Below are positions 1-35,320 of a stretch of DNA of 64,000 bases, piece after piece. The notes under the pieces were generated by a model that was not told where the DNA came from, did no database searches, and saw only the letters and a list, made by a program, of their open reading frames with translations. This stretch comes from Dudresnaya verticillata (Eukaryota): positions 1 through 64,000 of the forward strand of contig OZ374565.1 of assembly GCA_977862235.1 (NCBI GenBank). The letters run 5' to 3'. The translations under genes were made by a program, and so were the position numbers. Numbering within the stretch: position 1 is the first letter of the stretch; every line of letters begins with the position of its first letter.

Positions 1-1533
1 CCTAAACCCCTAAACCCCTAAACCCCTAAACCCCTAAAACCCCTAAAACCCCTAAACCCCTAAACCCCTAAACCCCTAAACCCCTAAACCCTAAACCCCT
101 AAACCCCTAAACCCCTAAACCCCTAAACCCCTAAACCCCTAAACCCCTAAACCCCTAAACCCCTAAACCCCTAAACCCCTAAACCCCTAAAACCCCTAAA
201 CCCCTAAAACCCCTAAAACCCCTAAAACCCCTAAACCCCTAAACCCCTAAACCCCTAAACCCCTAAACCCCTAAAACCCCTAAACCCCTAAACCCCTAAA
301 CCCCTAAACCCCTAAACCCCTAAACCCCTAAACCCCTAAACCCCTAAACCCCTAAACCCCTAAACCCCTAAACCCCTAAACCCCTAAACCCCTAAACCCC
401 TAAACCCCTAAAACCCCTAAACCCCTAAAACCCTAAAACCCCTAAACCCCTAAAACCCTAAACCCCTAAAACCCCTAAACCCCTAAAACCCCTAAACCCC
501 TAAACCCCTAAACCCCTAAACCCCTAAACCCCTAAACCCCTAAACCCCTAAACCCCTAAACCCCTAAACCCCTAAACCCCTAAACCCCTAAACCCCTAAA
601 CCCCTAAACCCCTAAACCCCTAAACCCCTAAACCCCTAAACCCCTAAACCCCTAAACCCCTAAACCCCTAAACCCCTAAACCCCTAAACCCCTAAACCCC
701 TAAACCCCTAAACCCCTAAACCCCTAAACCCCTAAACCCCTAAACCCCTAAACCCCTAAACCCCTAAACCCCTAAACCCCTAAACCCCTAAACCCCTAAA
801 CCCCTAAAACCCCTAAAACCCCTAAACCCCTAAACCCCTAAACCCCTAAACCCCTAAACCCCTAAACCCCTAAACCCCTAAACCCCTAAACCCCTAAACC
901 CCTAAAACCCCTAAACCCCTAAACCCCTAAACCCCTAAACCCCTAAACCCCTAAACCCCTAAAACCCCTAAACCCCTAAAACCCCTAAACCCCTAAAACC
1001 CCTAAAACCCCTAAACCCCTAAACCCCTAAACCCCTAAACCCCTAAAACCCCCTAAACCCCTAAAACCCCTAAACCCCTAAACCCCTAAACCCCTAAACC
1101 CCTAAAACCTAAACCCCTAAAACCCCTAAAACCCCTAAACCCCTAAAACCCCTAAACCCCTAAAACCCCTAAAACCCCTAAACCCCTAAACCCCTAAAAC
1201 CCCTAAACCCCTAAACCCCTAAACCCCTAAAACCCCTAAACCCCTAAACCCCTAAAACCCTAAACCCCTAAACCCCTAAACCCCTAAACCCCTAAACCCC
1301 TAAACCCCTAAAAACCCCTAAACCCCTAAACCCCTAAACCCCTAAAACCCCTAAACCCCTAAACCCCTAAAACCCCTAAACCCCTAAACCCCTAAAACCC
1401 TAAACCCCTAAAACCCCTAAACCCCTAAAACCCCTAAACCCCTAAACCCCTAAACCCCTAAACCCCTAAACCCCTAAAACCCCTAAAACCCCTAAAAAAA
1501 CCCCTAAAACCCCTAAACCCCTAAACCCCTAAA
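1..1533 (-). repeat. Telomeric repeat tract (CCCCTAAA)n = (TTTAGGGG)n on the minus strand, with CCCCTAAAA and CCCTAAAA variants
   Basis: Uninterrupted 8-9-nt tandem repeat from base 1, C-rich strand on +, as expected at a left chromosome end. Confidence 0.97.
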
Positions 1534-1598
1534 CTCACCTTTGACGGCGGGCGAGCGCGGTCTACTTTTGTCTCTTTTTGCGCCGTCGATCTGCGCCG

Positions 1599-1646
1599 CG
1601 ACGCCGTCGTCGTCGCCGCCGTCGCCGCCGCCGTCGTCGCCGACGG
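1599..1646 (+). repeat. GC-rich (GTC/GCC)n trinucleotide low-complexity tract in the element 5' UTR (present in every copy)
   Basis: cgacgccgtcgtcgtcgccgccgtcgccgccgccgtcgtcgccgacgg. Confidence 0.85.
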
Positions 1647-1679
1647 TCACGCGTTTCCTATTTTGCGCTTACTTTTAAG

Positions 1680-1725
1680 GTGATCCCTCACCTTGAAATT
1701 TGCCCGGGCCCCACTGACTTATCTT
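1680..1725 (-). promoter_or_regulatory. Bipartite 5S internal-control-region / target mimic in the element 5' UTR (box C + box A); also at 6348, 11006, 15666, 20326, 24986, 29646, 53608, 58255, 62902
   Basis: GTGATCCCTCACCT-N22-GACTTATCTT is identical in both blocks and in spacing to 5S gene 35225-35238 / 35261-35270. Copies 3-7 have GACTTGTCTT. Function is not established. Confidence 0.7.
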
Positions 1726-1765
1726 TCTTTCCCTGGCCCTGTACGCGTTTTGCTTGTACCCGGCA

Positions 1766-2460
1766 CAGCCTAGACTCTGTCTAGGCTGCCGTGGACTGTC
1801 GACAGAGGGGTTTCACACCCTTCAACTGACAGATTGGTAAAGGCCAGGCTTGTCCTGTAAAATCTTCCTTCGGGAAGTGCCGAGAGACCTACAAGTGTGG
1901 GAATCGCCAAAGACCCTCGACCTTGAGTGGTAGGCGGCTCGTGACCCACAAGCTCATCGCAGAAACGTGCCAAGCAACGTCGAAGTTGGGGTAACGTGGC
2001 TTAAGCCTGGTGGATCCTGTTTTGAAACCACCCCTTCTAAGATCGAGCGAACGTCCTGCCAGCGAACCTTCGGGGGAGGCCAAAAATCCTGTGGGCACTC
2101 ACAGGTAAACGGTGGTTCTGCGACCCCATTGAGAGCTTGTGCAAACGAGAAGTACCGCGCGTTACAGGACCGCAGTGAAGAGACTCTTCTCAGCTGCGGC
2201 AGGGAAGGGAACGTCCGATAAGTCTACGCGCGAACGCTAACACGTGCGCCCTTTTGCGCGAGCTCGTGCGCAAATTGCGCAAAATCACGCCCTACGCTGC
2301 GAAGAGGCCTTCATCTCGCAGCAAGGCCACCTGTAGCACCCTCTGGAGGTGTCCCGAACAGACTGACGACGGACGACAGGCTTGCGTCCCGGTTAGGAGG
2401 TCTGTGCCCCGAGGGAACCTACTGTAGAGGACCTTTACAGGTACCTTACCCAGCGCTGTA
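1766..2460 (+). ncRNA. Putative highly structured RNA region of the element 5' UTR (identity unknown)
   Basis: 10-bp hairpin 1766-1788; 9-bp long-range helix 1852-1860/2162-2170; CUUCC-UUCG-GGAAG 1864-1877; GCAA-capped stem 2136-2149; further stems 2088-2105, 2170-2199, 2296-2322. Confidence 0.55.
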
Positions 2461-2463
2461 ACC

Positions 2464-5400
2464 ATGATTGGTCAGCAGCACCCCGACATGCCGAAGGTAT
2501 GGCTCTCTCCATGCTTTATGCCTTCGGCAAAACACCGCCCGACAAACAGTACCAGCTGTCCTCTGGGCTGCCAGTCGTCCTCACTGCCTACTGTAGAAGC
2601 GCTACTCATGCACCTGCGGAAGATGCATGTTCCTGGCAGGCGAGGACCACCGACGAGGACCGACATCGAGCCTCTCAAGCAGCAGCTCCTGGACTATGGA
2701 GTATGGTACTGTGTGACTCACAACAAGTACATGCCTACCCACTGTAGCTCCCGCATGAACAGTGAAGGCATGTACAGTATGCGGTACAAGAATTGCAGCG
2801 CATGTCCCGCCACTCGCACTCCGGCGTTCTCCCACGTCCCGTCCAACCAATTGACGACACCGAGCCGTGAAGAAACTGTAGCCGCGCCATCACAGACTCC
2901 TGCTCTGGACGCGGTCACGGAGACGCAACCCGAGGACGGCGAGCCGGCGGACGATATCCTGCCAGCCCCGCGACGAATCCCGGACAGCCAGGAGCCGCCT
3001 CCTGCACCGGTACCAGCTACTCAAGTGGTACCAACTGCGCAAACCCGACACGCTGCGCGGGGTCCAGGAGGGCAGCTTCTGCCGGCGGTCGAAGATATCT
3101 GTCGCTCGCATATCCCTATGGTCACACATATACCGTCTCGCGTGCGCGCAGAGGTGCGCGACGCACTGTCCAAGACGGTATGGGCTTTTACGAACGCAAA
3201 CAACTCTCAGGAAGCCACCAAAGAGCTCACTGCATTCCTGCTTTTTCCAGCAGCCGTCTTGTCCAATCCTCCCGCGGCGAGTGCAAGGGCCGGCGCGTCA
3301 ACCTCTGCGTCCTCGATCGGCACCTTCCGCGATCGAATCCGCCGCTGGGGACTCAAGGATTACGACGCCCTATGGCAGGAGGCCTTGAAGGGCTCGACAT
3401 TCCGTGAGCAGACTGCGCCTTCCGCAGAAGAGCAACGCCGTATCAACGCCTCACGAGCCCTTCGCCTCGCAAAGGAGGGCGCCTACAGTAAGGCAGCAGC
3501 AGCTCTAGACTCTGATGGAATCGCGCCAGCCACAGACTCTGTGATACAGTCCATGAAGGACAAGCACCCACAGTCCGTACCGCAAACCGACGCGGACCAC
3601 GAGCTTGACCAGTCCGAACCGCTGCCGACCATGCCTGACTTTGTGCCTTTCACAGCCGACGAAGTACGAAAAGCAGTGGCCAAGTTCCCCCGGGCTTCGG
3701 CCTCGGGGGGCACAGGACTATCACCGACGCATCTGCAGGAACTGCTCTCAGTCCCGACCACTCACGAGCACACGGGCCTGCTTGGCGGGCTCACCAAAAT
3801 GGTCAACGTGCTGGCCAGCGGCGCAGGACCTGCGGAGCTGTCGCCTTGGATTGCCAGCGCTCCTCTCACGGCTCTGAAGAAGCGCACCGGCGGTGTCCGC
3901 CCCATTGCTGTAGGAGAGACAATCCGACGACTCGTGAGCTCTATGCTCATGACCAGAGTCGCTCCCAAGGCCAAGGCATACCTCGAACCGCTTCAGCTCG
4001 GGGTCGCAACCTCGGGCGGCACAGAAGCGATTGTACACGCGGTCCGGAAGCTGCAGAATTCTCACGGCCATGACAAGTCCTACGGGTTGCTACAAGTGGA
4101 CTTGAAGAATGCCTTCAACCTTGTCAGCCGCAAAGCATTCATGAAGGAGGTCCGCCGACATATGCCTGAACTGCTATCGTGGGTCAGATACTGTTATGAC
4201 TCTGAGGGCCCGCACCTGTGGATGGGTGACACTCTACTGCGGAGTGTCACTGGTGTACAGCAAGGTGACCCGCTCGGGCCGTTACTGTTTGCTTTAGTGC
4301 TGCAGGCACTGATCAAACAGTTGAAGGAACTCACCGCCGACCTGCGGCGCTCGGGCCGCAATCAGCAAGCGGAGGCAGCAAACAACTTGCTGCTGTCACT
4401 GTTCTACCTGGACGACGGCGTCATCGTGGCGAAACACGCCGTACTCAGGAAGGTTCTGTCCTTCTTTGACTCCGAGGAAGCTAAGGGCTACGGCTTCCAC
4501 CTGCGCATGGACAAGTGTACTGTTTGGTGGCCTACTGCACCCGACCCAGAAGACTGCGCTGCCTACCCGTCGGATCTTGGGCAGAGCTACGGAGAAGGCA
4601 CTACAGTACTTCAGGCTCCGATTGGAACGCAGAACTACATGGAGGAGAGCGTGAATGGCCATGTCGAGTCCATCCAGCCCCTGCTGGACGCAATTTCGGG
4701 ACTCGAAGACCTACACGTGGCCATAACTCTACTCCGCAACTGTGCCGGAGTCTGCCGGCTGAACTACCTGCTGCGAGTAGTTCCATCATCCGCCACGGCG
4801 AAGGGCGCCGAGCTCTTCGACCAGAAGATTGAGGCTTGCATGCGCAAGCTCGTGGGAGGAGTCCTACCGAGGGACACCTTCCGCGAACTTCAGCTTCCCC
4901 TGCGCACGAAAGATCCCAGCTTCGGAATCGGTATTTCGGGAGCTGGCGACATGAACTCGAGCGCGTTTTTGGCGTCCCTTTCACTGACCCGCAACTTACT
5001 GCGTTCTATCTTACCCGCTTCTGTGAACACTGCTCTTTCTGACGATCCTTTTGCAGTAGAAGCGCATGAAGACTGGAGCGCCAAGTGCCATAGTGAGGAT
5101 GCCCTGGACCTCGAGAAGATCGACAGCGACGAGTGCCCGCGCCAGCGGGACTTGACGCGGTTGGTACTGAAGAAGGTGCAGGCCGAGCTGCCGCTCGGGG
5201 ACAGGCGGACTCAAGCTTTCCGAGCTTCCCTTGGCGTGCCGGGCGCCAAGGACTGGCTCAAGTGCCAGCCGGCACCAGGCATGAAGACGTACATTGCGGA
5301 TCGGGACTACCGCGTATGGCTTCGATTCTACTGTCGGATTCCACTGCTGGAACCCGACACGGAGTGTCCTCGGGCCGGGTGCAAGAAGATGATGGATGTT

Positions 5401-5952
5401 CACGGCGACCATCTGCTGATTTGTCCGAACGGCATGCGGAACAGCGGATCTCCTCGGTCGTGGCGCCACGACTCTCAGGTTCGTCTGCTGGCTTCGGATC
5501 TGAAACGTGCGACACGCACCCCGACTGTGGAGCCCCGCCCTGTGGGGGCTCACCTGGATCGGCCGGACATCAAGGCGCTTGGAACAGAAGGAGGAACGGA
5601 CTACCTGGACGTCACAATCAGTCATCCACTGTCGTCAGAACAACGCATTCTCAGCTGCATAACAAACCCGCAAGGGACGCTGAAGAACGCCCACGCTGAC
5701 AAGGTGCGGACTTACCGTGGCTTCATCCAGGCTGCCGGACCGGGGGCAAGACTTGTGCCGGTGCCGATGACCACACTAGGTGGCTGGCACCCGGAGGCGC
5801 ACAAGTATATGCAAGAGTTGGCGGATACCGTGGCTTCTCGGGCCATGGTAACTCGCGGTGTTTCGCGAGCGGCTCTGTTCCACAGGCACGCGGCGCGACT
5901 GGTGCAGAACAACGTCAAGTGCCTGATGGAAGGGATCCAACAGGAGGTGTAG
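2464..5952 (+). CDS. Retrotransposon polyprotein, 1162 aa: N-terminal C2H2 zinc finger, reverse transcriptase, CCHC knuckle, restriction-like endonuclease
   Basis: C-x3-C-x13-H-x4-H; GVRPIAVGE, QLGV..GGTEA, DLKNAFN, GVQQGDPLGPLLF, YLDD; C-x4-C-x9-H-x3-C, RHD, RPD..LDVTI..K..Y. Confidence 0.97.
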   Translation: MIGQQHPDMPKVWLSPCFMPSAKHRPTNSTSCPLGCQSSSLPTVEALLMHLRKMHVPGRRGPPTRTDIEPLKQQLLDYGVWYCVTHNKYMPTHCSSRMNSEGMYSMRYKNCSACPATRTPAFSHVPSNQLTTPSREETVAAPSQTPALDAVTETQPEDGEPADDILPAPRRIPDSQEPPPAPVPATQVVPTAQTRHAARGPGGQLLPAVEDICRSHIPMVTHIPSRVRAEVRDALSKTVWAFTNANNSQEATKELTAFLLFPAAVLSNPPAASARAGASTSASSIGTFRDRIRRWGLKDYDALWQEALKGSTFREQTAPSAEEQRRINASRALRLAKEGAYSKAAAALDSDGIAPATDSVIQSMKDKHPQSVPQTDADHELDQSEPLPTMPDFVPFTADEVRKAVAKFPRASASGGTGLSPTHLQELLSVPTTHEHTGLLGGLTKMVNVLASGAGPAELSPWIASAPLTALKKRTGGVRPIAVGETIRRLVSSMLMTRVAPKAKAYLEPLQLGVATSGGTEAIVHAVRKLQNSHGHDKSYGLLQVDLKNAFNLVSRKAFMKEVRRHMPELLSWVRYCYDSEGPHLWMGDTLLRSVTGVQQGDPLGPLLFALVLQALIKQLKELTADLRRSGRNQQAEAANNLLLSLFYLDDGVIVAKHAVLRKVLSFFDSEEAKGYGFHLRMDKCTVWWPTAPDPEDCAAYPSDLGQSYGEGTTVLQAPIGTQNYMEESVNGHVESIQPLLDAISGLEDLHVAITLLRNCAGVCRLNYLLRVVPSSATAKGAELFDQKIEACMRKLVGGVLPRDTFRELQLPLRTKDPSFGIGISGAGDMNSSAFLASLSLTRNLLRSILPASVNTALSDDPFAVEAHEDWSAKCHSEDALDLEKIDSDECPRQRDLTRLVLKKVQAELPLGDRRTQAFRASLGVPGAKDWLKCQPAPGMKTYIADRDYRVWLRFYCRIPLLEPDTECPRAGCKKMMDVHGDHLLICPNGMRNSGSPRSWRHDSQVRLLASDLKRATRTPTVEPRPVGAHLDRPDIKALGTEGGTDYLDVTISHPLSSEQRILSCITNPQGTLKNAHADKVRTYRGFIQAAGPGARLVPVPMTTLGGWHPEAHKYMQELADTVASRAMVTRGVSRAALFHRHAARLVQNNVKCLMEGIQQEV

Positions 5953-6082
5953 ATGTGCAAGTTGTCTTGAGTTGGGGTTTAACTTTGGTGTGATACTAGA
6001 GTAGATTGTACGTCGAAAAATATTAGAATATGATCACCTGTTATAAAGTTGAACTCACCTCAGATAAAGTTGAACTCACCTC

Positions 6083-9000
6083 GGCGATCTGCCGAAAATT
6101 TTGTTTCGCGGATATCTCAACAAGTTCTGCACCGATCTTTTCGGCGGCGGTGCCGCCTGTTCGAGCGCGCGACGGCGCGTCGGTGCGGGGTTTTTCAGCC
6201 CTTCACCTTTGACGGCGGGCGAGCGCGGTCTACTTTTGTCTCTTTTTGCGCCGTCGATCTGCGCCGCGACGCCGTCGTCGTCGCCGCCGTCGCCGCCGCC
6301 GTCGTCGCCGACGGTCACGCGTTTCCTATTTTGCGCTTACTTTTAAGGTGATCCCTCACCTTGAAATTTGCCCGGGCCCCACTGACTTATCTTTCTTTCC
6401 CTGGCCCTGTACGCGTTTTGCTTGTACCCGGCACAGCCTAGACTCTGTCTAGGCTGCCGTGGACTGTCGACAGAGGGGTTTCACACCCTTCAACTGACAG
6501 ATTGGTAAAGGCCAGGCTTGTCCTGTAAAATCTTCCTTCGGGAAGTGCCGAGAGACCTACAAGTGTGGGAATCGCCAAAGACCCTCGACCTTGAGTGGTA
6601 GGCGGCTCGTGACCCACAAGCTCATCGCAGAAACGTGCCAAGCAACGTCGAAGTTGGGGTAACGTGGCTTAAGCCTGGTGGATCCTGTTTTGAAACCACC
6701 CCTTCTAAGATCGAGCGAACGTCCTGCCAGCGAACCTTCGGGGGAGGCCAAAAATCCTGTGGGCACTCACAGGTAAACGGTGGTTCTGCGACCCCATTGA
6801 GAGCTTGTGCAAACGAGAAGTACCGCGCGTTACAGGACCGCAGTGAAGAGACTCTTCTCAGCTGCGGCAGGGAAGGGAACGTCCGATAAGTCTACGCGCG
6901 AACGCTAACACGTGCGCCCTTTTGCGCGAGCTCGTGCGCAAATTGCGCAATCTCACGCCCTACGCTGCGAAGAGGCCTTCATCTCGCAGCAAGGCCACCT
7001 GTAGCACCCTCTGGAGGTGTCCCGAACAGACTGACGACGGACGACAGGCTTGCGTCCCGGTTAGGAGGTCTGTGCCCCGAGGGAACCTACTGTAGAGGAC
7101 CTTTACAGGTACCTTACCCAGCGCTGTAACCATGATTGGTCAGCAGCACCCCGACATGCCGAAGGTATGGCTCTCTCCATGCTTTATGCCTTCGGCAAAA
7201 CACCGCCCGACAAACAGTACCAGCTGTCCTCTGGGCTGCCAGTCGTCCTCACTGCCTACTGTAGAAGCGCTACTCATGCACCTGCGGAAGATGCATGTTC
7301 CTGGCAGGCGAGGACCACCGACGAGGACCGACATCGAGCCTCTCAAGCAGCAGCTCCTGGACTATGGAGTATGGTACTGTGTGACTCACAACAAGTACAT
7401 GCCTACCCACTGTAGCTCCCGCATGAACAGTGAAGGCATGTACAGTATGCGGTACAAGAATTGCAGCGCATGTCCCGCCACTCGCACTCCGGCGTTCTCC
7501 CACGTCCCGTCCAACCAATTGACGACACCGAGCCGTGAAGAAACTGTAGCCGCGCCATCACAGACTCCTGCCCTGGACGCGGTCACGGAGACGCAACCCG
7601 AGGACGGCGAGCCGGCGGACGATATCCTGCCAGCCCCGCGACGAATCCCGGACAGCCAGGAGCCGCCTCCTGCACCGGTACCAGCTACTCAAGTGGTACC
7701 AACTGCGCAAACCCGACACGCTGCGCGGGGTCCAGGAGGGCAGCTTCTGCCGGCGGTCGAAGATATCTGTCGCTCGCATATCCCTATGGTCACACATATA
7801 CCGTCTCGCGTCCGCGCAGAGGTGCGCGACGCACTGTCCAAGACGGTATGGGCTTTTACGAACGCAAACAACTCTCAGGAAGCCACCAAAGAGCTCACTG
7901 CATTCCTGCTTTTTCCAGCAGCCGTCTTGTCCAATCCTCCCGCGGCGAGTGCAAGGGCCGGCGCGTCAACCTCTGCGTCCTCGATCGGCACCTTCCGCGA
8001 TCGAATCCGCCGCTGGGGACTCAAGGATTACGACGCCCTATGGCAGGAGGCCTTGAAGGGCTCGACATTCCGTGAGCAGACTGCGCCTTCCGCAGAAGAG
8101 CAACGCCGTATCAACGCCTCACGAGCCCTTCGCCTCGCAAAGGAGGGCGCCTACAGTAAGGCAGCAGCAGCTCTAGACTCTGATGGAATCGCCCCAGCCA
8201 CAGACTCTGTGATACAGTCCATGAAGGACAAGCACCCACAGTCCGTACCGCAAACCGACGCGGACCACGAGCTTGACCAGTCCGAACCGCTGCCGACCAT
8301 GCCTGACTTTGTGCCTTTCACAGCCGACGAAGTACGAAAAGCAGTGGCCAAGTTCCCCCGGGCTTCGGCCTCGGGGGGCACAGGACTATCACCGACCCAT
8401 CTGCAGGAACTGCTCTCAGTCCCGACCACTCACGAGCACACGGGCCTGCTTGGCGGGCTCACCAAAATGGTCAACGTGCTGGCCAGCGGCGCAGGACCTG
8501 CGGAGCTGTCGCCTTGGATTGCCAGCGCTCCTCTCACGGCTCTGAAGAAGCGCACCGGCGGTGTCCGCCCCATTGCTGTAGGAGAGACAATCCGACGACT
8601 CGTGAGCTCTATGCTCATGACCAGAGTCGCTCCCAAGGCCAAGGCATACCTCGAACCGCTTCAGCTCGGGGTCGCAACCTCGGGCGGCACAGAAGCCATT
8701 GTACACGCGGTCCGGAAGCTGCAGAAGTCTCACGGCCATGACAAGTCCTACGGGTTGCTACAAGTGGACTTGAAGAATGCCTTCAACCTTGTCAGCCGCA
8801 AAGCATTCATGAAGGAGGTCCGCCGACATATGCCTGAACTACTACCGTGGGTCAGATTCTGTTATGACTCTGAGGGCCCGCACCTGTGGATGGGTGACAC
8901 TCTACTGCGGAGTGTCACTGGTGTACAGCAAGGTGACCCGCTCGGGCCGTTACTGTTTGCTTTGGTGCTGCAGGCACTGATCAAACAGTTGAAGGAACTC

Positions 9001-10721
9001 ACCGCCGACCTGCGGCGCTCGGGCCGCAATCAGCAAGCGGAGGGGGCGAACAACTTGCTGCTGTCACTGTTCTACCTGGACGACGGCGTCATCGTGGCGA
9101 AACACGCCGTACTCAGGAAGGTTCTGTCCTTCTTTGACTCCGAGGAAGCTAAGGGCTATGGCTTCCACCTGCGCATGGACAAGTGTACTGTTTGGTGGCC
9201 TACTGCACCCGACCCAGAAGACTGCGCTGCCTACCCATCGGATCTTGGGCAGAGCTACGGAGAAGGCACTACAGTACTTCAGGCTCCGATTGGAACGCAG
9301 AACTACATGGAGGAGAGCGTGAATGGCCATGTCGAGTCCATCCAGCCCCTGCTGGACGCAATTTCGGGACTAGAAGACCTACACGTGGCCATCACTCTAC
9401 TCCGCAACTGTGCCGGAGTCTGCCGGCTGAACTACCTGCTGCGAGTAGTTCCATCATCCGCCACGGCGAAGGGCGCCGAGCTCTTCGACCAGAAGATTGA
9501 GGCTTGCATGCGCAAGCTCGTGGGAGGAGTCCTACCGAGGGACACCTTCCGCGAACTTCAGCTTCCCCTGCGCACGAAAGAGCCCAGCTTCGGTATCGGT
9601 ATTTCGGGAGCTGGCGACATGAACTCGAGCGCGTTTTTGGCGTCCCTTTCACTGACCCGCAACTTACTGCGTTCTATCTTACCCGCTTCTGTGAACACTG
9701 CTCTTTCTGACGATCCTTTTGCAGTAGAAGCGCACGAAGACTGGAGCGCCAAGTGCCATAGTGAGGATGCTCTGGACCTGGAGAAGATCGACAGCGACGA
9801 GTGCCCACGCCAGAGGGACTTGACGCGGTTGGTACTGAAGAAAGTGCAAGCCGAGCTGCCGCTCGGGGACAGGCGGACGCAAGCTTTCCGAGCTTCCCTT
9901 GGCGCGCCGGGCGCCAAGGACTGGCTCAAGTGCCAGCCGGCACCAGGCATGAAGACGTACATTGCGGATCGGGACTACCGCGTATGGCTTCGATTCTACT
10001 GTCGGATTCCACTGCTGGAACCCGACACGGAGTGTCCTCGGGCCGGGTGCAAGAAGATGATGGATGTTCACGGCGACCATCTGCTGATTTGTCCGAACGG
10101 CATGCGGAACAGCGGATCTCCTCGGTCGTGGCGCCACGACTCTCAGGTTCGTCTGCTGGCTTCGGATCTGAAACGTGCGACACGCACCCCGATTGTGGAG
10201 CCCCGCCCTGTGGGGGCTCACCTGGATCGGCCGGACATCAAGGCGCTTGGAACAGAAGGAGGAACGGACTACCTGGACGTCACAATCAGTCATCCACTGT
10301 CGTCAGAACAACGCATTCTCAGCTGCATAACAAACCCGCAAGGGACGCTGAAGAACGCCCACGCTGACAAGGTGCGGACTTACCGTGGCTTCATCCAGGC
10401 TGCCGGACCGGGGGCAAGACTTGTGCCGGTGCCGATGACCACACTAGGTGGCTGGCACCCGGAGGCGCACAAGTACATGCAAGAGTTGGCGGATACTGTG
10501 GCTTCTCGGGCCATGGTAACTCGCGGTGTTTCGCGAGCGGCTCTATTCCACAGGCACGCGGCGCGACTGGTGCAGAACAACGTCAAGTGCCTGATGGAAG
10601 GGATCCAACAGGAGGTGTAGATGTGCAAGTTGTTTTGAGTTGGGGTTTAACTTTGTTGTGATACTACAGTAGATTGTACGTCGACAAATATTAGAATATG
10701 ATCACCTGTTATAAAGTTGAA
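6083..10721 (+). mobile_element. RLE non-LTR retrotransposon, copy 2
   Basis: Near-identical to the other copies; ends ATAAAGTTGAA, then CTCACCTCAGTACT (10722-10735). Confidence 0.93.
7132..10620 (+). CDS. Retrotransposon RT/RLE polyprotein, 1162 aa
   Basis: Intact ORF with the same motifs as 2464-5952. Confidence 0.97.
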   Translation: MIGQQHPDMPKVWLSPCFMPSAKHRPTNSTSCPLGCQSSSLPTVEALLMHLRKMHVPGRRGPPTRTDIEPLKQQLLDYGVWYCVTHNKYMPTHCSSRMNSEGMYSMRYKNCSACPATRTPAFSHVPSNQLTTPSREETVAAPSQTPALDAVTETQPEDGEPADDILPAPRRIPDSQEPPPAPVPATQVVPTAQTRHAARGPGGQLLPAVEDICRSHIPMVTHIPSRVRAEVRDALSKTVWAFTNANNSQEATKELTAFLLFPAAVLSNPPAASARAGASTSASSIGTFRDRIRRWGLKDYDALWQEALKGSTFREQTAPSAEEQRRINASRALRLAKEGAYSKAAAALDSDGIAPATDSVIQSMKDKHPQSVPQTDADHELDQSEPLPTMPDFVPFTADEVRKAVAKFPRASASGGTGLSPTHLQELLSVPTTHEHTGLLGGLTKMVNVLASGAGPAELSPWIASAPLTALKKRTGGVRPIAVGETIRRLVSSMLMTRVAPKAKAYLEPLQLGVATSGGTEAIVHAVRKLQKSHGHDKSYGLLQVDLKNAFNLVSRKAFMKEVRRHMPELLPWVRFCYDSEGPHLWMGDTLLRSVTGVQQGDPLGPLLFALVLQALIKQLKELTADLRRSGRNQQAEGANNLLLSLFYLDDGVIVAKHAVLRKVLSFFDSEEAKGYGFHLRMDKCTVWWPTAPDPEDCAAYPSDLGQSYGEGTTVLQAPIGTQNYMEESVNGHVESIQPLLDAISGLEDLHVAITLLRNCAGVCRLNYLLRVVPSSATAKGAELFDQKIEACMRKLVGGVLPRDTFRELQLPLRTKEPSFGIGISGAGDMNSSAFLASLSLTRNLLRSILPASVNTALSDDPFAVEAHEDWSAKCHSEDALDLEKIDSDECPRQRDLTRLVLKKVQAELPLGDRRTQAFRASLGAPGAKDWLKCQPAPGMKTYIADRDYRVWLRFYCRIPLLEPDTECPRAGCKKMMDVHGDHLLICPNGMRNSGSPRSWRHDSQVRLLASDLKRATRTPIVEPRPVGAHLDRPDIKALGTEGGTDYLDVTISHPLSSEQRILSCITNPQGTLKNAHADKVRTYRGFIQAAGPGARLVPVPMTTLGGWHPEAHKYMQELADTVASRAMVTRGVSRAALFHRHAARLVQNNVKCLMEGIQQEV

Positions 10722-10735
10722 CTCACCTCAGTACT
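10722..10735. other. 14-bp 5S-derived target sequence CTCACCTCAGTACT between tandem elements (TSD-like); also 15382, 20042, 24702, 29362, 57984, 62631; partial at 6054, 6075, 53327
   Basis: Identical to 5S gene 35232-35245. Confidence 0.88.
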
Positions 10736-13700
10736 CCCTCAGCGATCTGCCGAAATTTTTGTTTCGCGGATATCTCAACAAGTTCTGCACCGATCTTTTC
10801 GGCGGCGGTGCCGCCTGTTCGAGCGCGCGACGGCGCGTCGGTGCGGGGTTTTTCAGCCCTTCACCTTCGCGGGCGGGCGAGCGCGGTCTACTTTTGTCTC
10901 TTTCCGCGCCGCCGATCTGCGCCGCGACGCCGTCGTCGTCGCCGCCGTCGCCGCCGCCGTCGTCGCCGACGGTCACGCGTTTCCTATTTTGCGCTTACTT
11001 TTAAGGTGATCCCTCACCTTGAAATTTGCCCGGGCCCCACTGACTTGTCTTTCTTTCCCTGGCCCTGTACGCGTTTTGCTTGTACCCGGCACAGCCTAGA
11101 CTCTGTCTAGGCTGCCGTGGACTGTCGACAGAGGGGTTTCACACCCTTCAACTGACAGATTGGTAAAGGCCAGGCTTGTCCTGTAAAATCTTCCTTCGGG
11201 AAGTGCCGAGAGACCTACAAGTGTGGGAATCGCCAAAGACCCTCGACCTTGAGTGGTAGGCGGCTCGTGACCCACAAGCTCATCGCAGAAACGTGCCAAG
11301 CAACGTCGAAGTTGGGGTAACGTGGCTTAAGCCTGGTGGATCCTGTTTTGAAACCACCCCTTCTAAGATCGAGCGAACGTCCTGCCAGCGAACCTTCGGG
11401 GGAGGCCAAAAATCCTGTGGGCACTCACAGGTAAACGGTGGTTCTGCGACCCCATTGAGAGCTTGTGCAAACGAGAAGTACCGCGCGTTACAGGACCGCA
11501 GTGAAGAGAGTCTTCTCAGCTGCGGCAGGGAAGGGAACGTCCGATAACTCTGCGCGCACGAACGCTAACACGCGCGCCCTTTTGCGCGAGCTCGTGCGCA
11601 AAGTGCGCGATCTCGCGCCCTACGCTGCGAAGAGGCCCTCATCTCGCAGCAAGGCCACCTGTAGCACCCTCTGGAGGTGTCCCGAACAGACTGACGACGG
11701 ACGACAGGCTTGCGTCCCGGTTAGGAGGTCTGTGCCCCGTGGGAACCTACTGTAGAGGACCTTTACAGGTACCTTACCCAGCGCTGTAACCATGATTGGT
11801 CAGCAGCACCCCGACATGCCGAAGGTATGGCTCTCTCCATGCTTTATGCCTTCGGCAAAACACCGCCCGACAAACAGTACCAGCTGTCCTCTGGGCTGCC
11901 AGTCGTCCTCACTGCCTACTGTAGAAGCGCTACTCATGCACCTGCGGAAGATGCATGTTCCTGGCAGGCGAGGACCACCGACGAGGACCGACATCGAGCC
12001 TCTCAAGCAGCAGCTCCTGGACTATGGAGTATGGTACTGTGTGACTCACAACAAGTACATGCCCACCCACTGTAGCTCCCGCATGAACAGTGAAGGCATG
12101 TACAGTATGCGGTACAAGAATTACAGCGCATGTCCCGCTACTCGCACTCCGGCGTTCTCCCACGTCCCGTCCAACCAATTGACGACACCGAGCCGTGAAG
12201 AAACTGTAGCCGCGCCATCACAGTCTCCTGCTCTGGACGCGGTCACGGAGACGCAACCCGAGGACGGCGAGCCAGCGGACGATATCCTGCCAGCCCCGCG
12301 ACGAATCCCGGACAGCCAGGAGCCGCCTCCTGCACCGGTACCTGCTACTCGAGAGGTACCAACTGCGCAAACCCCACCCGTTGCGCGGGGTCCAGGAGGG
12401 CAGCTTCTGCCGGCGGTCGAAGACATCTGTCGCTCGCATATCCCTATGGTCACACATATACCGTCTCGCGTCCGCGCCGAGGTGCGCGACGCACTGTCCA
12501 AGACGGTATGGGCTTTTACGAACGCAACCAACTCTCAGGAAGCCACCAAAGAGCTCACTGCATTCCTGCTTTTTCCAGCAGCCGTCTTGTCCAATCCTCC
12601 CGCCGCGAGTGCAAGGGCCAGCGCGTCAACCTCTGCGTCCTCGATCGGCACCTTCCGCGATCGAATCCGACGCTGGGGACTCAAGGATTACGACGCCCTA
12701 TGGCAGGAGGCCTTGAAGGGCTCGACATTCCGTGAGCAGACTGCGCCTTCCGCAGAAGAGCAACGCCGTATCAATGCCTCACGAGCCCTTCGCCTTGCAA
12801 AGGAGGGCGCCTACAGTAAGGCAGCAGCAGCTCTAGACTCTGATGGAATCGCCCCAGCCACAGACTCTGTGATAGAGTCCATGAAGGACAAGCACCCGCA
12901 GTCCGTACCGCAAACCGACGCGGACCACGAGCTTGACCAGTCCGAACCGCTGCCGACCATGCCTGACTTCGTGCCTTTCACAGCCGACGAAGTACGAAAA
13001 GCAGTGGCCAAGTTCCCCCGGGCTTCGGCCTCGGGGGGAACAGGACTATCACCGACCCATCTGCAGGAACTGCTCTCAGTCCCGACCACTCACGAGCACA
13101 CGGGCCTGCTTGGCGGGCTCACCAAAATGGTCAACGTGCTGGCCAGCGGCGCAGGACCTGCGGAGCTGTCGCCTTGGATTGCCAGCGCTCCTCTCACGGC
13201 TCTGAAGAAGCGCACCGGCGGTGTCCGCCCCATTGCTGTAGGAGAGACAATCCGACGACTCGTGAGCTCTATGCTCATGACCAGAGTCGCTCCCAAGGCC
13301 AAGGCATACCTCGAACCGCTTCAGCTCGGGGTCGCAACCTCGGGCGGCACAGAAGCCATTGTACACGCGGTCCGGAAGCTGCAGAATTCTCACGGCCATG
13401 ACAAGTCCTACGGGTTGCTACAAGTGGACTTGAAGAATGCCTTCAACCTTGTCAGCCGCAAAGCATTCATGAAGGAGGTCCGCCGACATATGCCTGAACT
13501 ACTACCGTGGGTCAGATACTGTTATGACTCTGAGGGCCCGCACCTGTGGATGGGTGACACTCTACTGCGGAGTGTCACTGGTGTACAGCAAGGTGACCCG
13601 CTCGGGCCGTTACTGTTTGCTTTGGTGCTGCAGGCACTGATCAAACAGTTGAAGGAACTCACCGCCGACCTGCGGCGCTCGGGCCGCAATCAGCAAGCGG

Positions 13701-15381
13701 AGGGGGCGAACAACTTGCTGCTGTCACTGTTCTACCTGGACGACGGCGTCATCGTGGCGAAACACGCCGTACTCAGGAAGGTTCTGTCCTTCTTTGACTC
13801 CGAGGAAGCTAAGGGCTATGGCTTCCACCTGCGCATGGACAAGTGTACTGTTTGGTGGCCTACTGCACCCGACCCAGAAGACTGCGCTGCCTACCCGTCG
13901 GATCTTGGGCAGAGCTACGGAGAAGGCACTACAGTACTTCAGGCTCCGATTGGAACGCAGAACTACATGGAGGAGAGCGTGAATGGCCATGTCGAGTCCA
14001 TCCAGCCCCTGCTGGACGCAATTTCGGGACTAGAAGACCTACACGTGGCCATCACTCTACTCCGCAACTGTGCCGGAGTCTGCCGGCTGAACTACCTGCT
14101 GCGAGTAGTTCCATCATCCGCCACGGCAAAGGGCGCCGAGCTCTTCGACCAGAAGATTGAGGCTTGCATGCGCAAGCTCGTGGGAGGAGTCCTACCGAGG
14201 GACACCTTCCGCGAACTTCAGCTTCCCCTGCGCACGAAAGAGCCCAGCTTCGGAATCGGTATTTCGGGAGCTGGCGACATGAACTCGAGCGCGTTTTTGG
14301 CGTCCCTTTCACTGACCCGCAACTTACTGCGTTCTATCTTACCCGCTTCTGTGAACACTGCTCTTTCTGACGATCCTTTTGCAGTAGAAGCGCACGAAGA
14401 CTGGAGCGCCAAGTGCCATAGTGAGGATGCTCTGGACCTGGAGAAGATCGACAGCGACGAGTGCCCGCGCCAGCGGGACTTGACGCGGTTGGTTCTGAAG
14501 AAAGTGCAAGCCGAGCTGCCGCTCGGGGACAGGCGGACGCAAGCTTTCCGAGCTTCCCTTGGCGCGCCGGGCGCCAAGGACTGGCTCAAGTGCCAGCCGG
14601 CACCAGGCATGAAGACGTACATTGCGGATCGGGACTACCGCGTATGGCTTCGATTCTACTGTCGGATTCCACTGCTGGAACCCGACACGGAGTGTCCTCG
14701 GGCCGGGTGCAAGAAGATGATGGATGTTCACGGCGACCATCTGCTGATTTGTCCGAACGGCATGCGGAACAGCGGATCTCCTCGGTCGTGGCGCCACGAC
14801 TCTCAGGTTCGTCTGCTGGCTTCGGATCTGAAACGTGCGACACGCACCCCGATTGTGGAGCCCCGCCCTGTGGGGGCTCACCTGGATCGGCCGGACATCA
14901 AGGCGCTTGGAACAGAAGGAGGAACGGACTACCTGGACGTCACAATCAGTCATCCACTGTCGTCAGAACAACGCATTCTCAGCTGCATAACAAACCCGCA
15001 AGGGACGCTGAAGAACGCCCACGCTGACAAGGTGCGGACTTACCGTGGCTTCATCCAGGCTGCCGGACCGGGGGCAAGACTTGTGCCGGTGCCGATGACC
15101 ACACTAGGTGGCTGGCACCCGGAGGCGCACAAGTACATGCAAGAGTTGGCGGATACTGTGGCTTCTCGGGCCATGGTAACTCGCGGTGTTTCGCGAGCGG
15201 CTCTATTCCACAGGCACGCGGCGCGACTGGTGCAGAACAACGTCAAGTGCCTGATGGAAGGGATCCAACAGGAGGTGTAGATGTGCAAGTTGTTTTGAGT
15301 TGGGGTTTAACTTTGTTGTGATACTACAGTAGATTGTACGTCGACAAATATTAGAATATGATCACCTGTTATAAAGTTGAA
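10736..15381 (+). mobile_element. RLE non-LTR retrotransposon, copy 3 (4646 bp, longest form)
   Basis: Starts CCCTCAGCGATCTGCCG, ends ATAAAGTTGAA; flanked on both sides by the 14-bp 5S sequence. Confidence 0.95.
11792..15280 (+). CDS. Retrotransposon RT/RLE polyprotein, 1162 aa
   Basis: Intact ORF, same motifs. Confidence 0.97.
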   Translation: MIGQQHPDMPKVWLSPCFMPSAKHRPTNSTSCPLGCQSSSLPTVEALLMHLRKMHVPGRRGPPTRTDIEPLKQQLLDYGVWYCVTHNKYMPTHCSSRMNSEGMYSMRYKNYSACPATRTPAFSHVPSNQLTTPSREETVAAPSQSPALDAVTETQPEDGEPADDILPAPRRIPDSQEPPPAPVPATREVPTAQTPPVARGPGGQLLPAVEDICRSHIPMVTHIPSRVRAEVRDALSKTVWAFTNATNSQEATKELTAFLLFPAAVLSNPPAASARASASTSASSIGTFRDRIRRWGLKDYDALWQEALKGSTFREQTAPSAEEQRRINASRALRLAKEGAYSKAAAALDSDGIAPATDSVIESMKDKHPQSVPQTDADHELDQSEPLPTMPDFVPFTADEVRKAVAKFPRASASGGTGLSPTHLQELLSVPTTHEHTGLLGGLTKMVNVLASGAGPAELSPWIASAPLTALKKRTGGVRPIAVGETIRRLVSSMLMTRVAPKAKAYLEPLQLGVATSGGTEAIVHAVRKLQNSHGHDKSYGLLQVDLKNAFNLVSRKAFMKEVRRHMPELLPWVRYCYDSEGPHLWMGDTLLRSVTGVQQGDPLGPLLFALVLQALIKQLKELTADLRRSGRNQQAEGANNLLLSLFYLDDGVIVAKHAVLRKVLSFFDSEEAKGYGFHLRMDKCTVWWPTAPDPEDCAAYPSDLGQSYGEGTTVLQAPIGTQNYMEESVNGHVESIQPLLDAISGLEDLHVAITLLRNCAGVCRLNYLLRVVPSSATAKGAELFDQKIEACMRKLVGGVLPRDTFRELQLPLRTKEPSFGIGISGAGDMNSSAFLASLSLTRNLLRSILPASVNTALSDDPFAVEAHEDWSAKCHSEDALDLEKIDSDECPRQRDLTRLVLKKVQAELPLGDRRTQAFRASLGAPGAKDWLKCQPAPGMKTYIADRDYRVWLRFYCRIPLLEPDTECPRAGCKKMMDVHGDHLLICPNGMRNSGSPRSWRHDSQVRLLASDLKRATRTPIVEPRPVGAHLDRPDIKALGTEGGTDYLDVTISHPLSSEQRILSCITNPQGTLKNAHADKVRTYRGFIQAAGPGARLVPVPMTTLGGWHPEAHKYMQELADTVASRAMVTRGVSRAALFHRHAARLVQNNVKCLMEGIQQEV

Positions 15382-15395
15382 CTCACCTCAGTACT

Positions 15396-18300
15396 CCCTC
15401 AGCGATCTGCCGAAATTTTTGTTTCGCGGATATCTCAACAAGTTCTGCACCGATCTTTTCGGCGGCGGTGCCGCCTGTTCGAGCGCGCGACGGCGCGTCG
15501 GTGCGGGGTTTTTCAGCCCTTCACCTTCGCGGGCGGGCGAGCGCGGTCTACTTTTGTCTCTTTCCGCGCCGCCGATCTGCGCCGCGACGCCGTCGTCGTC
15601 GCCGCCGTCGCCGCCGCCGTCGTCGCCGACGGTCACGCGTTTCCTATTTTGCGCTTACTTTTAAGGTGATCCCTCACCTTGAAATTTGCCCGGGCCCCAC
15701 TGACTTGTCTTTCTTTCCCTGGCCCTGTACGCGTTTTGCTTGTACCCGGCACAGCCTAGACTCTGTCTAGGCTGCCGTGGACTGTCGACAGAGGGGTTTC
15801 ACACCCTTCAACTGACAGATTGGTAAAGGCCAGGCTTGTCCTGTAAAATCTTCCTTCGGGAAGTGCCGAGAGACCTACAAGTGTGGGAATCGCCAAAGAC
15901 CCTCGACCTTGAGTGGTAGGCGGCTCGTGACCCACAAGCTCATCGCAGAAACGTGCCAAGCAACGTCGAAGTTGGGGTAACGTGGCTTAAGCCTGGTGGA
16001 TCCTGTTTTGAAACCACCCCTTCTAAGATCGAGCGAACGTCCTGCCAGCGAACCTTCGGGGGAGGCCAAAAATCCTGTGGGCACTCACAGGTAAACGGTG
16101 GTTCTGCGACCCCATTGAGAGCTTGTGCAAACGAGAAGTACCGCGCGTTACAGGACCGCAGTGAAGAGAGTCTTCTCAGCTGCGGCAGGGAAGGGAACGT
16201 CCGATAACTCTGCGCGCACGAACGCTAACACGCGCGCCCTTTTGCGCGAGCTCGTGCGCAAAGTGCGCGATCTCGCGCCCTACGCTGCGAAGAGGCCCTC
16301 ATCTCGCAGCAAGGCCACCTGTAGCACCCTCTGGAGGTGTCCCGAACAGACTGACGACGGACGACAGGCTTGCGTCCCGGTTAGGAGGTCTGTGCCCCGT
16401 GGGAACCTACTGTAGAGGACCTTTACAGGTACCTTACCCAGCGCTGTAACCATGATTGGTCAGCAGCACCCCGACATGCCGAAGGTATGGCTCTCTCCAT
16501 GCTTTATGCCTTCGGCAAAACACCGCCCGACAAACAGTACCAGCTGTCCTCTGGGCTGCCAGTCGTCCTCACTGCCTACTGTAGAAGCGCTACTCATGCA
16601 CCTGCGGAAGATGCATGTTCCTGGCAGGCGAGGACCACCGACGAGGACCGACATCGAGCCTCTCAAGCAGCAGCTCCTGGACTATGGAGTATGGTACTGT
16701 GTGACTCACAACAAGTACATGCCCACCCACTGTAGCTCCCGCATGAACAGTGAAGGCATGTACAGTATGCGGTACAAGAATTACAGCGCATGTCCCGCTA
16801 CTCGCACTCCGGCGTTCTCCCACGTCCCGTCCAACCAATTGACGACACCGAGCCGTGAAGAAACTGTAGCCGCGCCATCACAGTCTCCTGCTCTGGACGC
16901 GGTCACGGAGACGCAACCCGAGGACGGCGAGCCAGCGGACGATATCCTGCCAGCCCCGCGACGAATCCCGGACAGCCAGGAGCCGCCTCCTGCACCGGTA
17001 CCTGCTACTCGAGAGGTACCAACTGCGCAAACCCCACCCGTTGCGCGGGGTCCAGGAGGGCAGCTTCTGCCGGCGGTCGAAGACATCTGTCGCTCGCATA
17101 TCCCTATGGTCACACATATACCGTCTCGCGTCCGCGCCGAGGTGCGCGACGCACTGTCCAAGACGGTATGGGCTTTTACGAACGCAACCAACTCTCAGGA
17201 AGCCACCAAAGAGCTCACTGCATTCCTGCTTTTTCCAGCAGCCGTCTTGTCCAATCCTCCCGCCGCGAGTGCAAGGGCCAGCGCGTCAACCTCTGCGTCC
17301 TCGATCGGCACCTTCCGCGATCGAATCCGACGCTGGGGACTCAAGGATTACGACGCCCTATGGCAGGAGGCCTTGAAGGGCTCGACATTCCGTGAGCAGA
17401 CTGCGCCTTCCGCAGAAGAGCAACGCCGTATCAATGCCTCACGAGCCCTTCGCCTTGCAAAGGAGGGCGCCTACAGTAAGGCAGCAGCAGCTCTAGACTC
17501 TGATGGAATCGCCCCAGCCACAGACTCTGTGATACAGTCCATGAAGGACAAGCACCCGCAGTCCGTACCGCAAACCGACGCGGACCACGAGCTTGACCAG
17601 TCCGAACCGCTGCCGACCATGCCTGACTTCGTGCCTTTCACAGCCGACGAAGTACGAAAAGCAGTGGCCAAGTTCCCCCGGGCTTCGGCCTCGGGGGGAA
17701 CAGGACTATCACCGACCCATCTGCAGGAACTGCTCTCAGTCCCGACCACTCACGAGCACACGGGCCTGCTTGGCGGGCTCACCAAAATGGTCAACGTGCT
17801 GGCCAGCGGCGCAGGACCTGCGGAGCTGTCGCCTTGGATTGCCAGCGCTCCTCTCACGGCTCTGAAGAAGCGCACCGGCGGTGTCCGCCCCATTGCTGTA
17901 GGAGAGACAATCCGACGACTCGTGAGCTCTATGCTCATGACCAGAGTCGCTCCCAAGGCCAAGGCATACCTCGAACCGCTTCAGCTCGGGGTCGCAACCT
18001 CGGGCGGCACAGAAGCCATTGTACACGCGGTCCGGAAGCTGCAGAATTCTCACGGCCATGACAAGTCCTACGGGTTGCTACAAGTGGACTTGAAGAATGC
18101 CTTCAACCTTGTCAGCCGCAAAGCATTCATGAAGGAGGTCCGCCGACATATGCCTGAACTACTACCGTGGGTCAGATACTGTTATGACTCTGAGGGCCCG
18201 CACCTGTGGATGGGTGACACTCTACTGCGGAGTGTCACTGGTGTACAGCAAGGTGACCCGCTCGGGCCGTTACTGTTTGCTTTGGTGCTGCAGGCACTGA

Positions 18301-20041
18301 TCAAACAGTTGAAGGAACTCACCGCCGACCTGCGGCGCTCGGGCCGCAATCAGCAAGCGGAGGGGGCGAACAACTTGCTGCTGTCACTGTTCTACCTGGA
18401 CGACGGCGTCATCGTGGCGAAACACGCCGTACTCAGGAAGGTTCTGTCCTTCTTTGACTCCGAGGAAGCTAAGGGCTATGGCTTCCACCTGCGCATGGAC
18501 AAGTGTACTGTTTGGTGGCCTACTGCACCCGACCCAGAAGACTGCGCTGCCTACCCGTCGGATCTTGGGCAGAGCTACGGAGAAGGCACTACAGTACTTC
18601 AGGCTCCGATTGGAACGCAGAACTACATGGAGGAGAGCGTGAATGGCCATGTCGAGTCCATCCAGCCCCTGCTGGACGCAATTTCGGGACTAGAAGACCT
18701 ACACGTGGCCATCACTCTACTCCGCAACTGTGCCGGAGTCTGCCGGCTGAACTACCTGCTGCGAGTAGTTCCATCATCCGCCACGGCAAAGGGCGCCGAG
18801 CTCTTCGACCAGAAGATTGAGGCTTGCATGCGCAAGCTCGTGGGAGGAGTCCTACCGAGGGACACCTTCCGCGAACTTCAGCTTCCCCTGCGCACGAAAG
18901 AGCCCAGCTTCGGAATCGGTATTTCGGGAGCTGGCGACATGAACTCGAGCGCGTTTTTGGCGTCCCTTTCACTGACCCGCAACTTACTGCGTTCTATCTT
19001 ACCCGCTTCTGTGAACACTGCTCTTTCTGACGATCCTTTTGCAGTAGAAGCGCACGAAGACTGGAGCGCCAAGTGCCATAGTGAGGATGCTCTGGACCTG
19101 GAGAAGATCGACAGCGACGAGTGCCCGCGCCAGCGGGACTTGACGCGGTTGGTTCTGAAGAAAGTGCAAGCCGAGCTGCCGCTCGGGGACAGGCGGACGC
19201 AAGCTTTCCGAGCTTCCCTTGGCGCGCCGGGCGCCAAGGACTGGCTCAAGTGCCAGCCGGCACCAGGCATGAAGACGTACATTGCGGATCGGGACTACCG
19301 CGTATGGCTTCGATTCTACTGTCGGATTCCACTGCTGGAACCCGACACGGAGTGTCCTCGGGCCGGGTGCAAGAAGATGATGGATGTTCACGGCGACCAT
19401 CTGCTGATTTGTCCGAACGGCATGCGGAACAGCGGATCTCCTCGGTCGTGGCGCCACGACTCTCAGGTTCGTCTGCTGGCTTCGGATCTGAAACGTGCGA
19501 CACGCACCCCGATTGTGGAGCCCCGCCCTGTGGGGGCTCACCTGGATCGGCCGGACATCAAGGCGCTTGGAACAGAAGGAGGAACGGACTACCTGGACGT
19601 CACAATCAGTCATCCACTGTCGTCAGAACAACGCATTCTCAGCTGCATAACAAACCCGCAAGGGACGCTGAAGAACGCCCACGCTGACAAGGTGCGGACT
19701 TACCGTGGCTTCATCCAGGCTGCCGGACCGGGGGCAAGACTTGTGCCGGTGCCGATGACCACACTAGGTGGCTGGCACCCGGAGGCGCACAAGTACATGC
19801 AAGAGTTGGCGGATACTGTGGCTTCTCGGGCCATGGTAACTCGCGGTGTTTCGCGAGCGGCTCTATTCCACAGGCACGCGGCGCGACTGGTGCAGAACAA
19901 CGTCAAGTGCCTGATGGAAGGGATCCAACAGGAGGTGTAGATGTGCAAGTTGTTTTGAGTTGGGGTTTAACTTTGTTGTGATACTACAGTAGATTGTACG
20001 TCGACAAATATTAGAATATGATCACCTGTTATAAAGTTGAA
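15396..20041 (+). mobile_element. RLE non-LTR retrotransposon, copy 4
   Basis: 4660-bp period repeat of copy 3. Confidence 0.95.
16452..19940 (+). CDS. Retrotransposon RT/RLE polyprotein, 1162 aa
   Basis: Intact ORF, same motifs. Confidence 0.97.
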   Translation: MIGQQHPDMPKVWLSPCFMPSAKHRPTNSTSCPLGCQSSSLPTVEALLMHLRKMHVPGRRGPPTRTDIEPLKQQLLDYGVWYCVTHNKYMPTHCSSRMNSEGMYSMRYKNYSACPATRTPAFSHVPSNQLTTPSREETVAAPSQSPALDAVTETQPEDGEPADDILPAPRRIPDSQEPPPAPVPATREVPTAQTPPVARGPGGQLLPAVEDICRSHIPMVTHIPSRVRAEVRDALSKTVWAFTNATNSQEATKELTAFLLFPAAVLSNPPAASARASASTSASSIGTFRDRIRRWGLKDYDALWQEALKGSTFREQTAPSAEEQRRINASRALRLAKEGAYSKAAAALDSDGIAPATDSVIQSMKDKHPQSVPQTDADHELDQSEPLPTMPDFVPFTADEVRKAVAKFPRASASGGTGLSPTHLQELLSVPTTHEHTGLLGGLTKMVNVLASGAGPAELSPWIASAPLTALKKRTGGVRPIAVGETIRRLVSSMLMTRVAPKAKAYLEPLQLGVATSGGTEAIVHAVRKLQNSHGHDKSYGLLQVDLKNAFNLVSRKAFMKEVRRHMPELLPWVRYCYDSEGPHLWMGDTLLRSVTGVQQGDPLGPLLFALVLQALIKQLKELTADLRRSGRNQQAEGANNLLLSLFYLDDGVIVAKHAVLRKVLSFFDSEEAKGYGFHLRMDKCTVWWPTAPDPEDCAAYPSDLGQSYGEGTTVLQAPIGTQNYMEESVNGHVESIQPLLDAISGLEDLHVAITLLRNCAGVCRLNYLLRVVPSSATAKGAELFDQKIEACMRKLVGGVLPRDTFRELQLPLRTKEPSFGIGISGAGDMNSSAFLASLSLTRNLLRSILPASVNTALSDDPFAVEAHEDWSAKCHSEDALDLEKIDSDECPRQRDLTRLVLKKVQAELPLGDRRTQAFRASLGAPGAKDWLKCQPAPGMKTYIADRDYRVWLRFYCRIPLLEPDTECPRAGCKKMMDVHGDHLLICPNGMRNSGSPRSWRHDSQVRLLASDLKRATRTPIVEPRPVGAHLDRPDIKALGTEGGTDYLDVTISHPLSSEQRILSCITNPQGTLKNAHADKVRTYRGFIQAAGPGARLVPVPMTTLGGWHPEAHKYMQELADTVASRAMVTRGVSRAALFHRHAARLVQNNVKCLMEGIQQEV

Positions 20042-20055
20042 CTCACCTCAGTACT

Positions 20056-24701: not shown

Positions 24702-24715
24702 CTCACCTCAGTACT

Positions 24716-29361: not shown

Positions 29362-29375
29362 CTCACCTCAGTACT

Positions 29376-34021: not shown

Positions 34022-34110
34022 CTCACCTCAGTACTAAACCAGCCTGACGAGACTTATCTTCGCAGTTCGGGATGGGATACGGAGCATGTCTGCGTAGTAT
34101 GGCCGAATGT
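34022..34110 (-). pseudogene. 5S rRNA gene truncated by retrotransposon insertion (nt 1-89 retained)
   Basis: Identical to 35232-35320; nt 90-120 and the terminator are replaced by the element 3' end. Confidence 0.93.
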
Positions 34111-35187: not shown

Positions 35188-35200
35188 AAAAAAATAAAAA
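35188..35200 (-). terminator. Pol III oligo-T terminator of the 5S gene (in each intact unit)
   Basis: TTTTTATTTTTTT on the minus strand directly after the gene 3' end. Confidence 0.88.
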
Positions 35201-35320
35201 ACATTCGGCACTGGCGATTCCAGAGTGATCCCTCACCTCAGTACTAAACCAGCCTGACGAGACTTATCTTCGCAGTTCGGGATGGGATACGGAGCATGTC
35301 TGCGTAGTATGGCCGAATGT
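35201..35320 (-). rRNA. 5S rRNA
   Basis: Minus strand ACATTCGGCCATAC...CCCATCCCGAACTGCGAAGATAAG...TTAGTACTGAGGTGAGGGATCACTCTGGAATC...GCCGAATGT; 120 nt; terminal helix ACATTCGGC/GCCGAATGT; oligo-T follows. Confidence 0.96.

Follow-up and report, generated by a model that had tools for sequence, protein, structure and literature searches.

Layouts similar to the one described here are known from the GilM and GilT elements of Giardia, which are reported to form unidirectional head-to-tail arrays between subtelomere and telomere repeats, with some copies 5'-truncated (PMC5537684). Their reverse transcription is described as directed to the chromosome end (PMC10999387), and their RT assigns them to the CRE clade (PMC10088271). 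For MoTeR, truncation and de novo telomere addition have been documented, and endonuclease cutting without reverse transcription has been proposed (10.1101/845669). Cnl1 is likewise reported at chromosome ends, together with a telomere-like duplication (PMC12810828). Mutsu in zebrafish and Dada-5S are described as inserting sequence-specifically into 5S rRNA genes (PMC5340908, PMC8869645). R2 is reported to proceed through a bottom-strand nick, TPRT and pairing of the cDNA to the upstream target (PMC13580325).

We analysed a window consisting of the first 64,000 nt of contig OZ374565.1 from Dudresnaya verticillata (assembly GCA_977862235.1). Its 5S sequence and the identifier style of one homologue (P0010) make a red alga the probable host. 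It opens with a telomere array, (CCCCTAAA)n at 1..1533 with the C-rich strand on the plus strand, followed by seven head-to-tail copies of a retrotransposon with a unit of about 4.65 kb (1535-34021), all on the plus strand. The outermost copy, c1 (1535..6053), has a 5' end 125 nt shorter than that of c3, and copies c2-c7 follow head to tail (6085..34021). Behind them lies a 5S rDNA array on the minus strand (34022..53316), made up of 15 identical 1210-bp periods and a last 1145 bp and carrying 15 intact 5S genes, and then copies c8-c10 on the plus strand (53338..64000), c10 being cut by the window end. As in GilM/GilT, a head-to-tail array has its 5' end to the tip and a truncated copy at the telomere, a match of layout and not of family. 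Unlike GilM/GilT, for which the accessible text of the reports leaves targeting unexplained and reads the truncation as erosion, this locus has a defined 5S site and a telomere junction in the register of that site. The element shares with MoTeR1 (Magnaporthe), FoTeR (Fusarium) and Cnl1 (Cryptococcus) a single ORF with RT and REL endonuclease and a tipward 5' end; the FoTeR protein has about 1,150-1,184 aa, against 1162 aa here. Telomere repeats harbour those elements and serve them as target and seed alike, whereas here the target is the 5S gene and the healed site is not telomere-like. Insertion into telomere repeats, a trait of MoTeR and FoTeR, was not observed for this element, and no telomere repeats were found between copies, all junctions holding 5S target sequence. 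Unlike Mutsu, described as having two ORFs and a site about 20 nt from the 5S 5' end, the element has one ORF and lies antisense after nt 89, and unlike Dada, a DNA transposon, it has one ORF with a candidate C-terminal REL motif. R2, which targets 28S rDNA, shows only 16-17% identity, and here 10-14 nt of apparently duplicated target separate the copies. We found no 5S-specific restriction-like-endonuclease element, in red algae or elsewhere, in the literature searched (outside subscription journals and Repbase). The 5S target appears new for this element type, while layouts like it are known (GilM/GilT, MoTeR, Cnl1).

The complete 1162-aa ORF is present in 9/9 complete copies, and in c1 it is intact at 2464..5952 on the plus strand. 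Its RT domain (residues 472-688) matched RVT_1 with an E value of 5e-17, and residues 968-1049 hold a predicted, intact restriction-like endonuclease motif (CCHC knuckle and RHD-E-RPD-D). A single-ORF non-LTR RT, a C-terminal REL motif and a precise 3' junction in a multicopy target, with apparent target duplication, mark it, as judged from the sequence, as a REL non-LTR retrotransposon. From motif resemblance we presume that the element likely belongs to the CRE clade (CRE, SLACS, CZAR, MoTeR, Cnl1). Homologue searches returned no named CRE-clade reference protein, and the ten homologues that we looked up yielded one bare identifier and no informative name. Among solved structures, R2 proteins were the best sequence and fold matches, with fold matches 1-7 all R2; the endonuclease region aligned weakly with the R2 C-terminal RH/PD region, at about 9 bits, which is not significant alone. 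The catalytic spacing of the REL motif (gaps of 19, 9 and 13 residues) fits the pattern given in PMC12857005, whereas the CCHC gaps of 4, 9, 3 and 13 compare with ranges of 1-3, 7-8, 3-4 and 9-10 in that pattern, so a widened CCHC pattern was needed. A putative N-terminal C2H2 zinc finger (C32, C36, H50, H55), recognised by eye and aligned in P0003 and P0004, had no Pfam match and a pLDDT <50. P0004, a close relative, has an additional PF02902 (Ulp1 protease) domain, and at L002 the DNA upstream of the RT may, as seen by eye, encode a similar Ulp1-like domain. An antisense ORF of 204 aa (minus strand, 5011-5625) overlies the endonuclease region in all nine complete copies and is probably a shadow frame. 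Among 80 metagenome loci with related proteins there was no 5S, UTR or telomere-repeat match, and an Rfam scan of 18 of them gave no RNA family.

The copies differ in their relationships along the array. A 5' haplotype common to c1 and c2 is absent from the eight other copies (c3-c10), and the two are no simple duplicates of each other, since their ORFs differ at 32 positions. Further in, the ORFs of c4-c6 are identical and c3 differs from them at 1 position, while c7 is a mosaic whose 3' end is closer to c8-c9. This pattern suggests that the outer two copies were separate insertions and that the inner copies were amplified or homogenised by recombination.

The insertion register is set by the 3' junctions. 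As the initial annotation had described, element insertions read GTTGAA|CTCACCTC, which held for 9/9 element 3' ends in the window. That annotation had missed the 5S rRNA gene as the real target: on the plus strand the gene reads GTGATCC^CTCACCTCAGTACT, and c7 passes directly into a 5S half. Taken together, the 3' ends, the 5S sequence and the continuation of c7 place the insertion antisense after 5S nt 89. Copy c7 is the one element that runs on into a 5S gene, and no insertion with both 5S halves intact occurs within the window. Between copies lie 10-14 nt of the target right half (14 nt between neighbours c2-c3 through c6-c7), which by analogy with R2 (PMC13580325) would represent a target duplication, the bottom strand being nicked and the top strand cut 10-14 nt further right. 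This nick position is deduced from the 3' junctions; should the 3' end of the RNA include target sequence, the nick would be placed more to the right.

At the chromosome end, the telomere array comprises 187 units, 139/187 of which are exact CCCCTAAA and none of which has a single C. The last telomere base (1533) is followed by C at 1534 and then by TCACCTTTGACGG beginning at 1535; at 6199-6215 the intact copy reads CCCTTCACCTTTGACGG, with T where the telomere junction has C1534. The junction was thus as initially annotated. C1534 has no counterpart in the intact UTR, while 1535-1540 are common to target and UTR. Because of this C, the heptamer CTCACCT (1534..1540, plus strand) is identical to target +1 to +7, a match to the target right half at 7/7 bases in exact register, and the junction sequence is nearer to the target than the intact UTR is. 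The better reading is that C1534 is the first base of the 5S target, with c1 5'-truncated and joined via TCACCT microhomology and the telomere at the true insertion register. As a counterpoint, half of the telomere repeat is C, so C1534 could also be a telomere base. In the target reading the G strand runs ...AGGTGAG and then TTTAGGGG, which offers telomerase one in-phase G, against zero in-phase telomere bases when the junction is read as UTR only. The site is not a telomere seed, and every 5S spacer contains two exact CCCCTAAA, which are better seeds. The adjacent CCCT, to which the initial annotation had allowed a role as telomerase microhomology, was rejected as a seed since its bases are missing from the junction. 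In vitro, human telomerase is reported to require about 5 nt of 3' overhang (10.1101/2022.10.31.514589); such an overhang would be available from a free cDNA end or a staggered cut. The 8-base telomere unit itself, CCCCTAAA / TTTAGGGG, may be an undescribed telomere type for the lineage: TTTAGGGG was scarce in the literature searched, with no algal match as judged by title, and a survey of algal telomeres describes those of rhodophytes as recalcitrant to standard analysis (PMC3622300).

How often a random break would give such a match was estimated with a null model in which a break falls at any position of one element unit, combined with any telomere phase (37,208 cases). At least 7 target right-half bases were found at most 1 nt from the junction in 68 of the 37,208 simulated breaks, and at least 6 in 112, a strict chance of 0.18-0.30%; the lenient setting, at least 5 bases at most 3 nt away, was reached in 655 (1.8%). 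Since the test was devised after the motif had been noticed, 0.2-2% is the fair range. The telomere junction is real, and its link to the insertion register is better than chance. Of the annotated claim that the telomere joins within 1 nt of that register, the link to the register stands, while the offset shrinks to 0 if C1534 is a target base.

The two junctions behind c1 show the same kind of switch. At 6054..6074 (plus strand), target +1 to +10 precedes a mini-copy of the last 11 nt of the element, giving a 21-nt period, and the junction at 6054 is in register, without gaps, with a TCACCT in the 3' UTR. Simple slippage was rejected as the source of the 21-bp duplication, because the second copy has the target CAG and not GTT. 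Target +1 to +10 also makes up the 5' junction of c2 (6075..6084, plus strand); it carries a single change and is in register with the CCTCAG that lies at the element 5' end. From the sequences at 1534, 6054 and 6075, all three outermost junctions switch from target to element via a 6-base look-alike, and only 6 places in the 4,646-nt element body offer such a look-alike in gapless register. The other junctions are not long in-register switches, those of c3-c8 being blunt (14 nt) and those of c9-c10 having a 2-nt overlap. The second element array has lost 66-69 bp of spacer and upstream 5S half at its outer edge (53317..53337, plus strand), where a short filler is present with two possible right edges (target +2 or +5); this edge resembles an end-joining scar at the same place. 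The 11-nt filler (53317-53327) begins with TTCACC, a match to both the target and the UTR junction site, and as a whole it had no source elsewhere in the window.

We put at about 50% the probability that the endonuclease nicked a genuine 5S target, that a new copy was joined through TCACCT microhomology and that telomerase healed the end after loss of the outer DNA; this figure and the gradings of the alternatives are our judgement. Layout, target, register and in-register neighbour switches can be read directly in the window, and from the one telomere junction we infer cleavage and telomerase healing. In this scheme, a new copy would be primed by a bottom-strand nick on the left side of CTCACC, at the array's outer edge, where the target had been regenerated, and the top strand would be cut 10-14 nt to the right. 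Reverse transcription would halt some 125 nt before reaching the 5' end; AGGTGA of the cDNA would pair with TCACCT of the target top-strand overhang, and the cDNA would gain one G. The join would then fail, or be re-cut later at the same register, with loss of the outer 5S DNA, and telomerase would extend the free end ...AGGTGAG-3'. The TCACCT motif of the UTR would accordingly act as a pairing site rather than a cut site. For R2, pairing of the cDNA to the upstream target is described as the favoured completion route, and a break has been proposed to remain where such pairing is lacking (PMC13580325). As the initial annotation had suggested, the likeliest class of explanation is that telomerase healed a break related to the element; the register link is above chance and the predicted endonuclease motif is intact.

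The alternative that survives best, which we nevertheless hold to be rather doubtful, is coincidence, with either erosion of the end or a break at random reaching 1535, telomerase starting with a G, and TCACCT matching by chance. There is a single junction only, TCACCT is present 3 times in 1,157 nt of UTRs, the lenient chance is 655/37,208, and the site lies on a predicted hairpin arm that could be fragile. Precedents exist as well, since 5' truncation of the Giardia elements has been interpreted as terminal erosion (PMC5537684) and a truncated MoTeR2 healed on a single T has been reported (10.1101/845669), so that telomere addition on a one-base seed requires no special mechanism. Against this, the strict chance is just 0.18-0.30%, an in-phase telomere base is absent if the end was a simple UTR break, and the matching in-register switches at 6054 and 6075 are left unexplained.

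Unlikely, in our judgement, is the mechanism put forward in the initial annotation, in which a target look-alike within the 5' UTR of the element itself was cut by the endonuclease and the broken end was then healed by telomerase. The junction is at most 1 nt from the insertion register, TCACCT is common to site and target, a one-base shift also aligns CCCT, and insertions of Cnl1 into copies of itself have been reported (PMC12810828). When scored without gaps over target -7 to +14 (21 positions), however, the intact equivalent of the junction site (6196..6215, plus strand, in the 3' arm of a hairpin predicted for the 5' UTR) has only 9/21 target matches, equalled or bettered by 242/4,651 positions of the unit. 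The best look-alike of the unit, with 14 contiguous bases and 16/21 matches (1677..1698, plus strand), lies 153 nt further in, at 1687, and survives uncut in the terminal copy. Neither UTR site carries an insertion or break in other copies: the junction site is intact in 9/9 others and the site at 1687 in 10/10 copies. A cut in the UTR would moreover require loss of the T and a telomerase start without pairing. The 1677-1698 look-alike falls within a strong predicted hairpin (11 pairs, z -5.26), and location in such predicted UTR hairpins may be one reason why both sites are kept.

Other features of the UTRs bear on these motifs. The 3 occurrences of TCACCT in 1,157 nt compare with 0.26 expected (0/500 shuffles), and the target-like motifs may either be left over from old junctions or serve as pairing sites. 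A cluster of 3 bases directly after the junction motif distinguishes the two 5' haplotypes (6210-6213 vs 10868-10871), and both versions pair with the upstream arm of one predicted hairpin. A 21-nt motif of the 5' UTR is repeated at 6188-6208 and 6475-6495 (71% identity), both in G-rich/C-rich predicted hairpins. No ribozyme or other RNA family reached the gathering score in the 5' UTR, where 3 weak matches look like chance.

Slightly less probable again is a history in two steps, in which a full-length junction first received the telomere at its true register and about 125-140 bp between two TCACCT motifs were deleted later. It would give an identical final sequence in the identical exact register, and the mosaic copies indicate active recombination within the array. 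Yet a second event is required, and a comparable deletion is seen at none of the 9 other 5' junctions. Finally, an assembly artefact or the capture of a ready-made telomere from another end is very improbable: although no reads lie over the junction (23 and 7 short pieces were available, none there, which is evidence in neither direction), the telomere has irregular variant units and c1 has many private variants, and capture merely shifts the question of origin to another end.

Among the literature matches listed, judged by their titles and with incomplete coverage, there was no case of telomere healing at a non-telomeric retrotransposon target. That retrotransposon endonucleases make ends which telomerase then heals was proposed earlier for MoTeR (10.1101/845669). 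A MoTeR junction cannot reveal what made the break, because target and telomere seed are the same sequence. Because the 5S target is non-telomeric, a telomere lying in its register can be read as a footprint, which makes the idea testable via junctions. The description of the element as a retrotransposon-driven chromosome-end generator, given in the initial annotation, is based on one telomere junction. If it is indeed a 5S-specific REL element, it would be a further candidate site-specific insertion enzyme. Possible, though tentative, is a broader picture in which a 5S-specific retrotransposon repeatedly resets the chromosome end: cuts in subtelomeric 5S genes would yield a G-ended 3' strand that telomerase heals, failed insertions would trim distal 5S genes and leave the newest copy at the telomere, and the target-like motifs of both UTRs would be built-in pairing sites.
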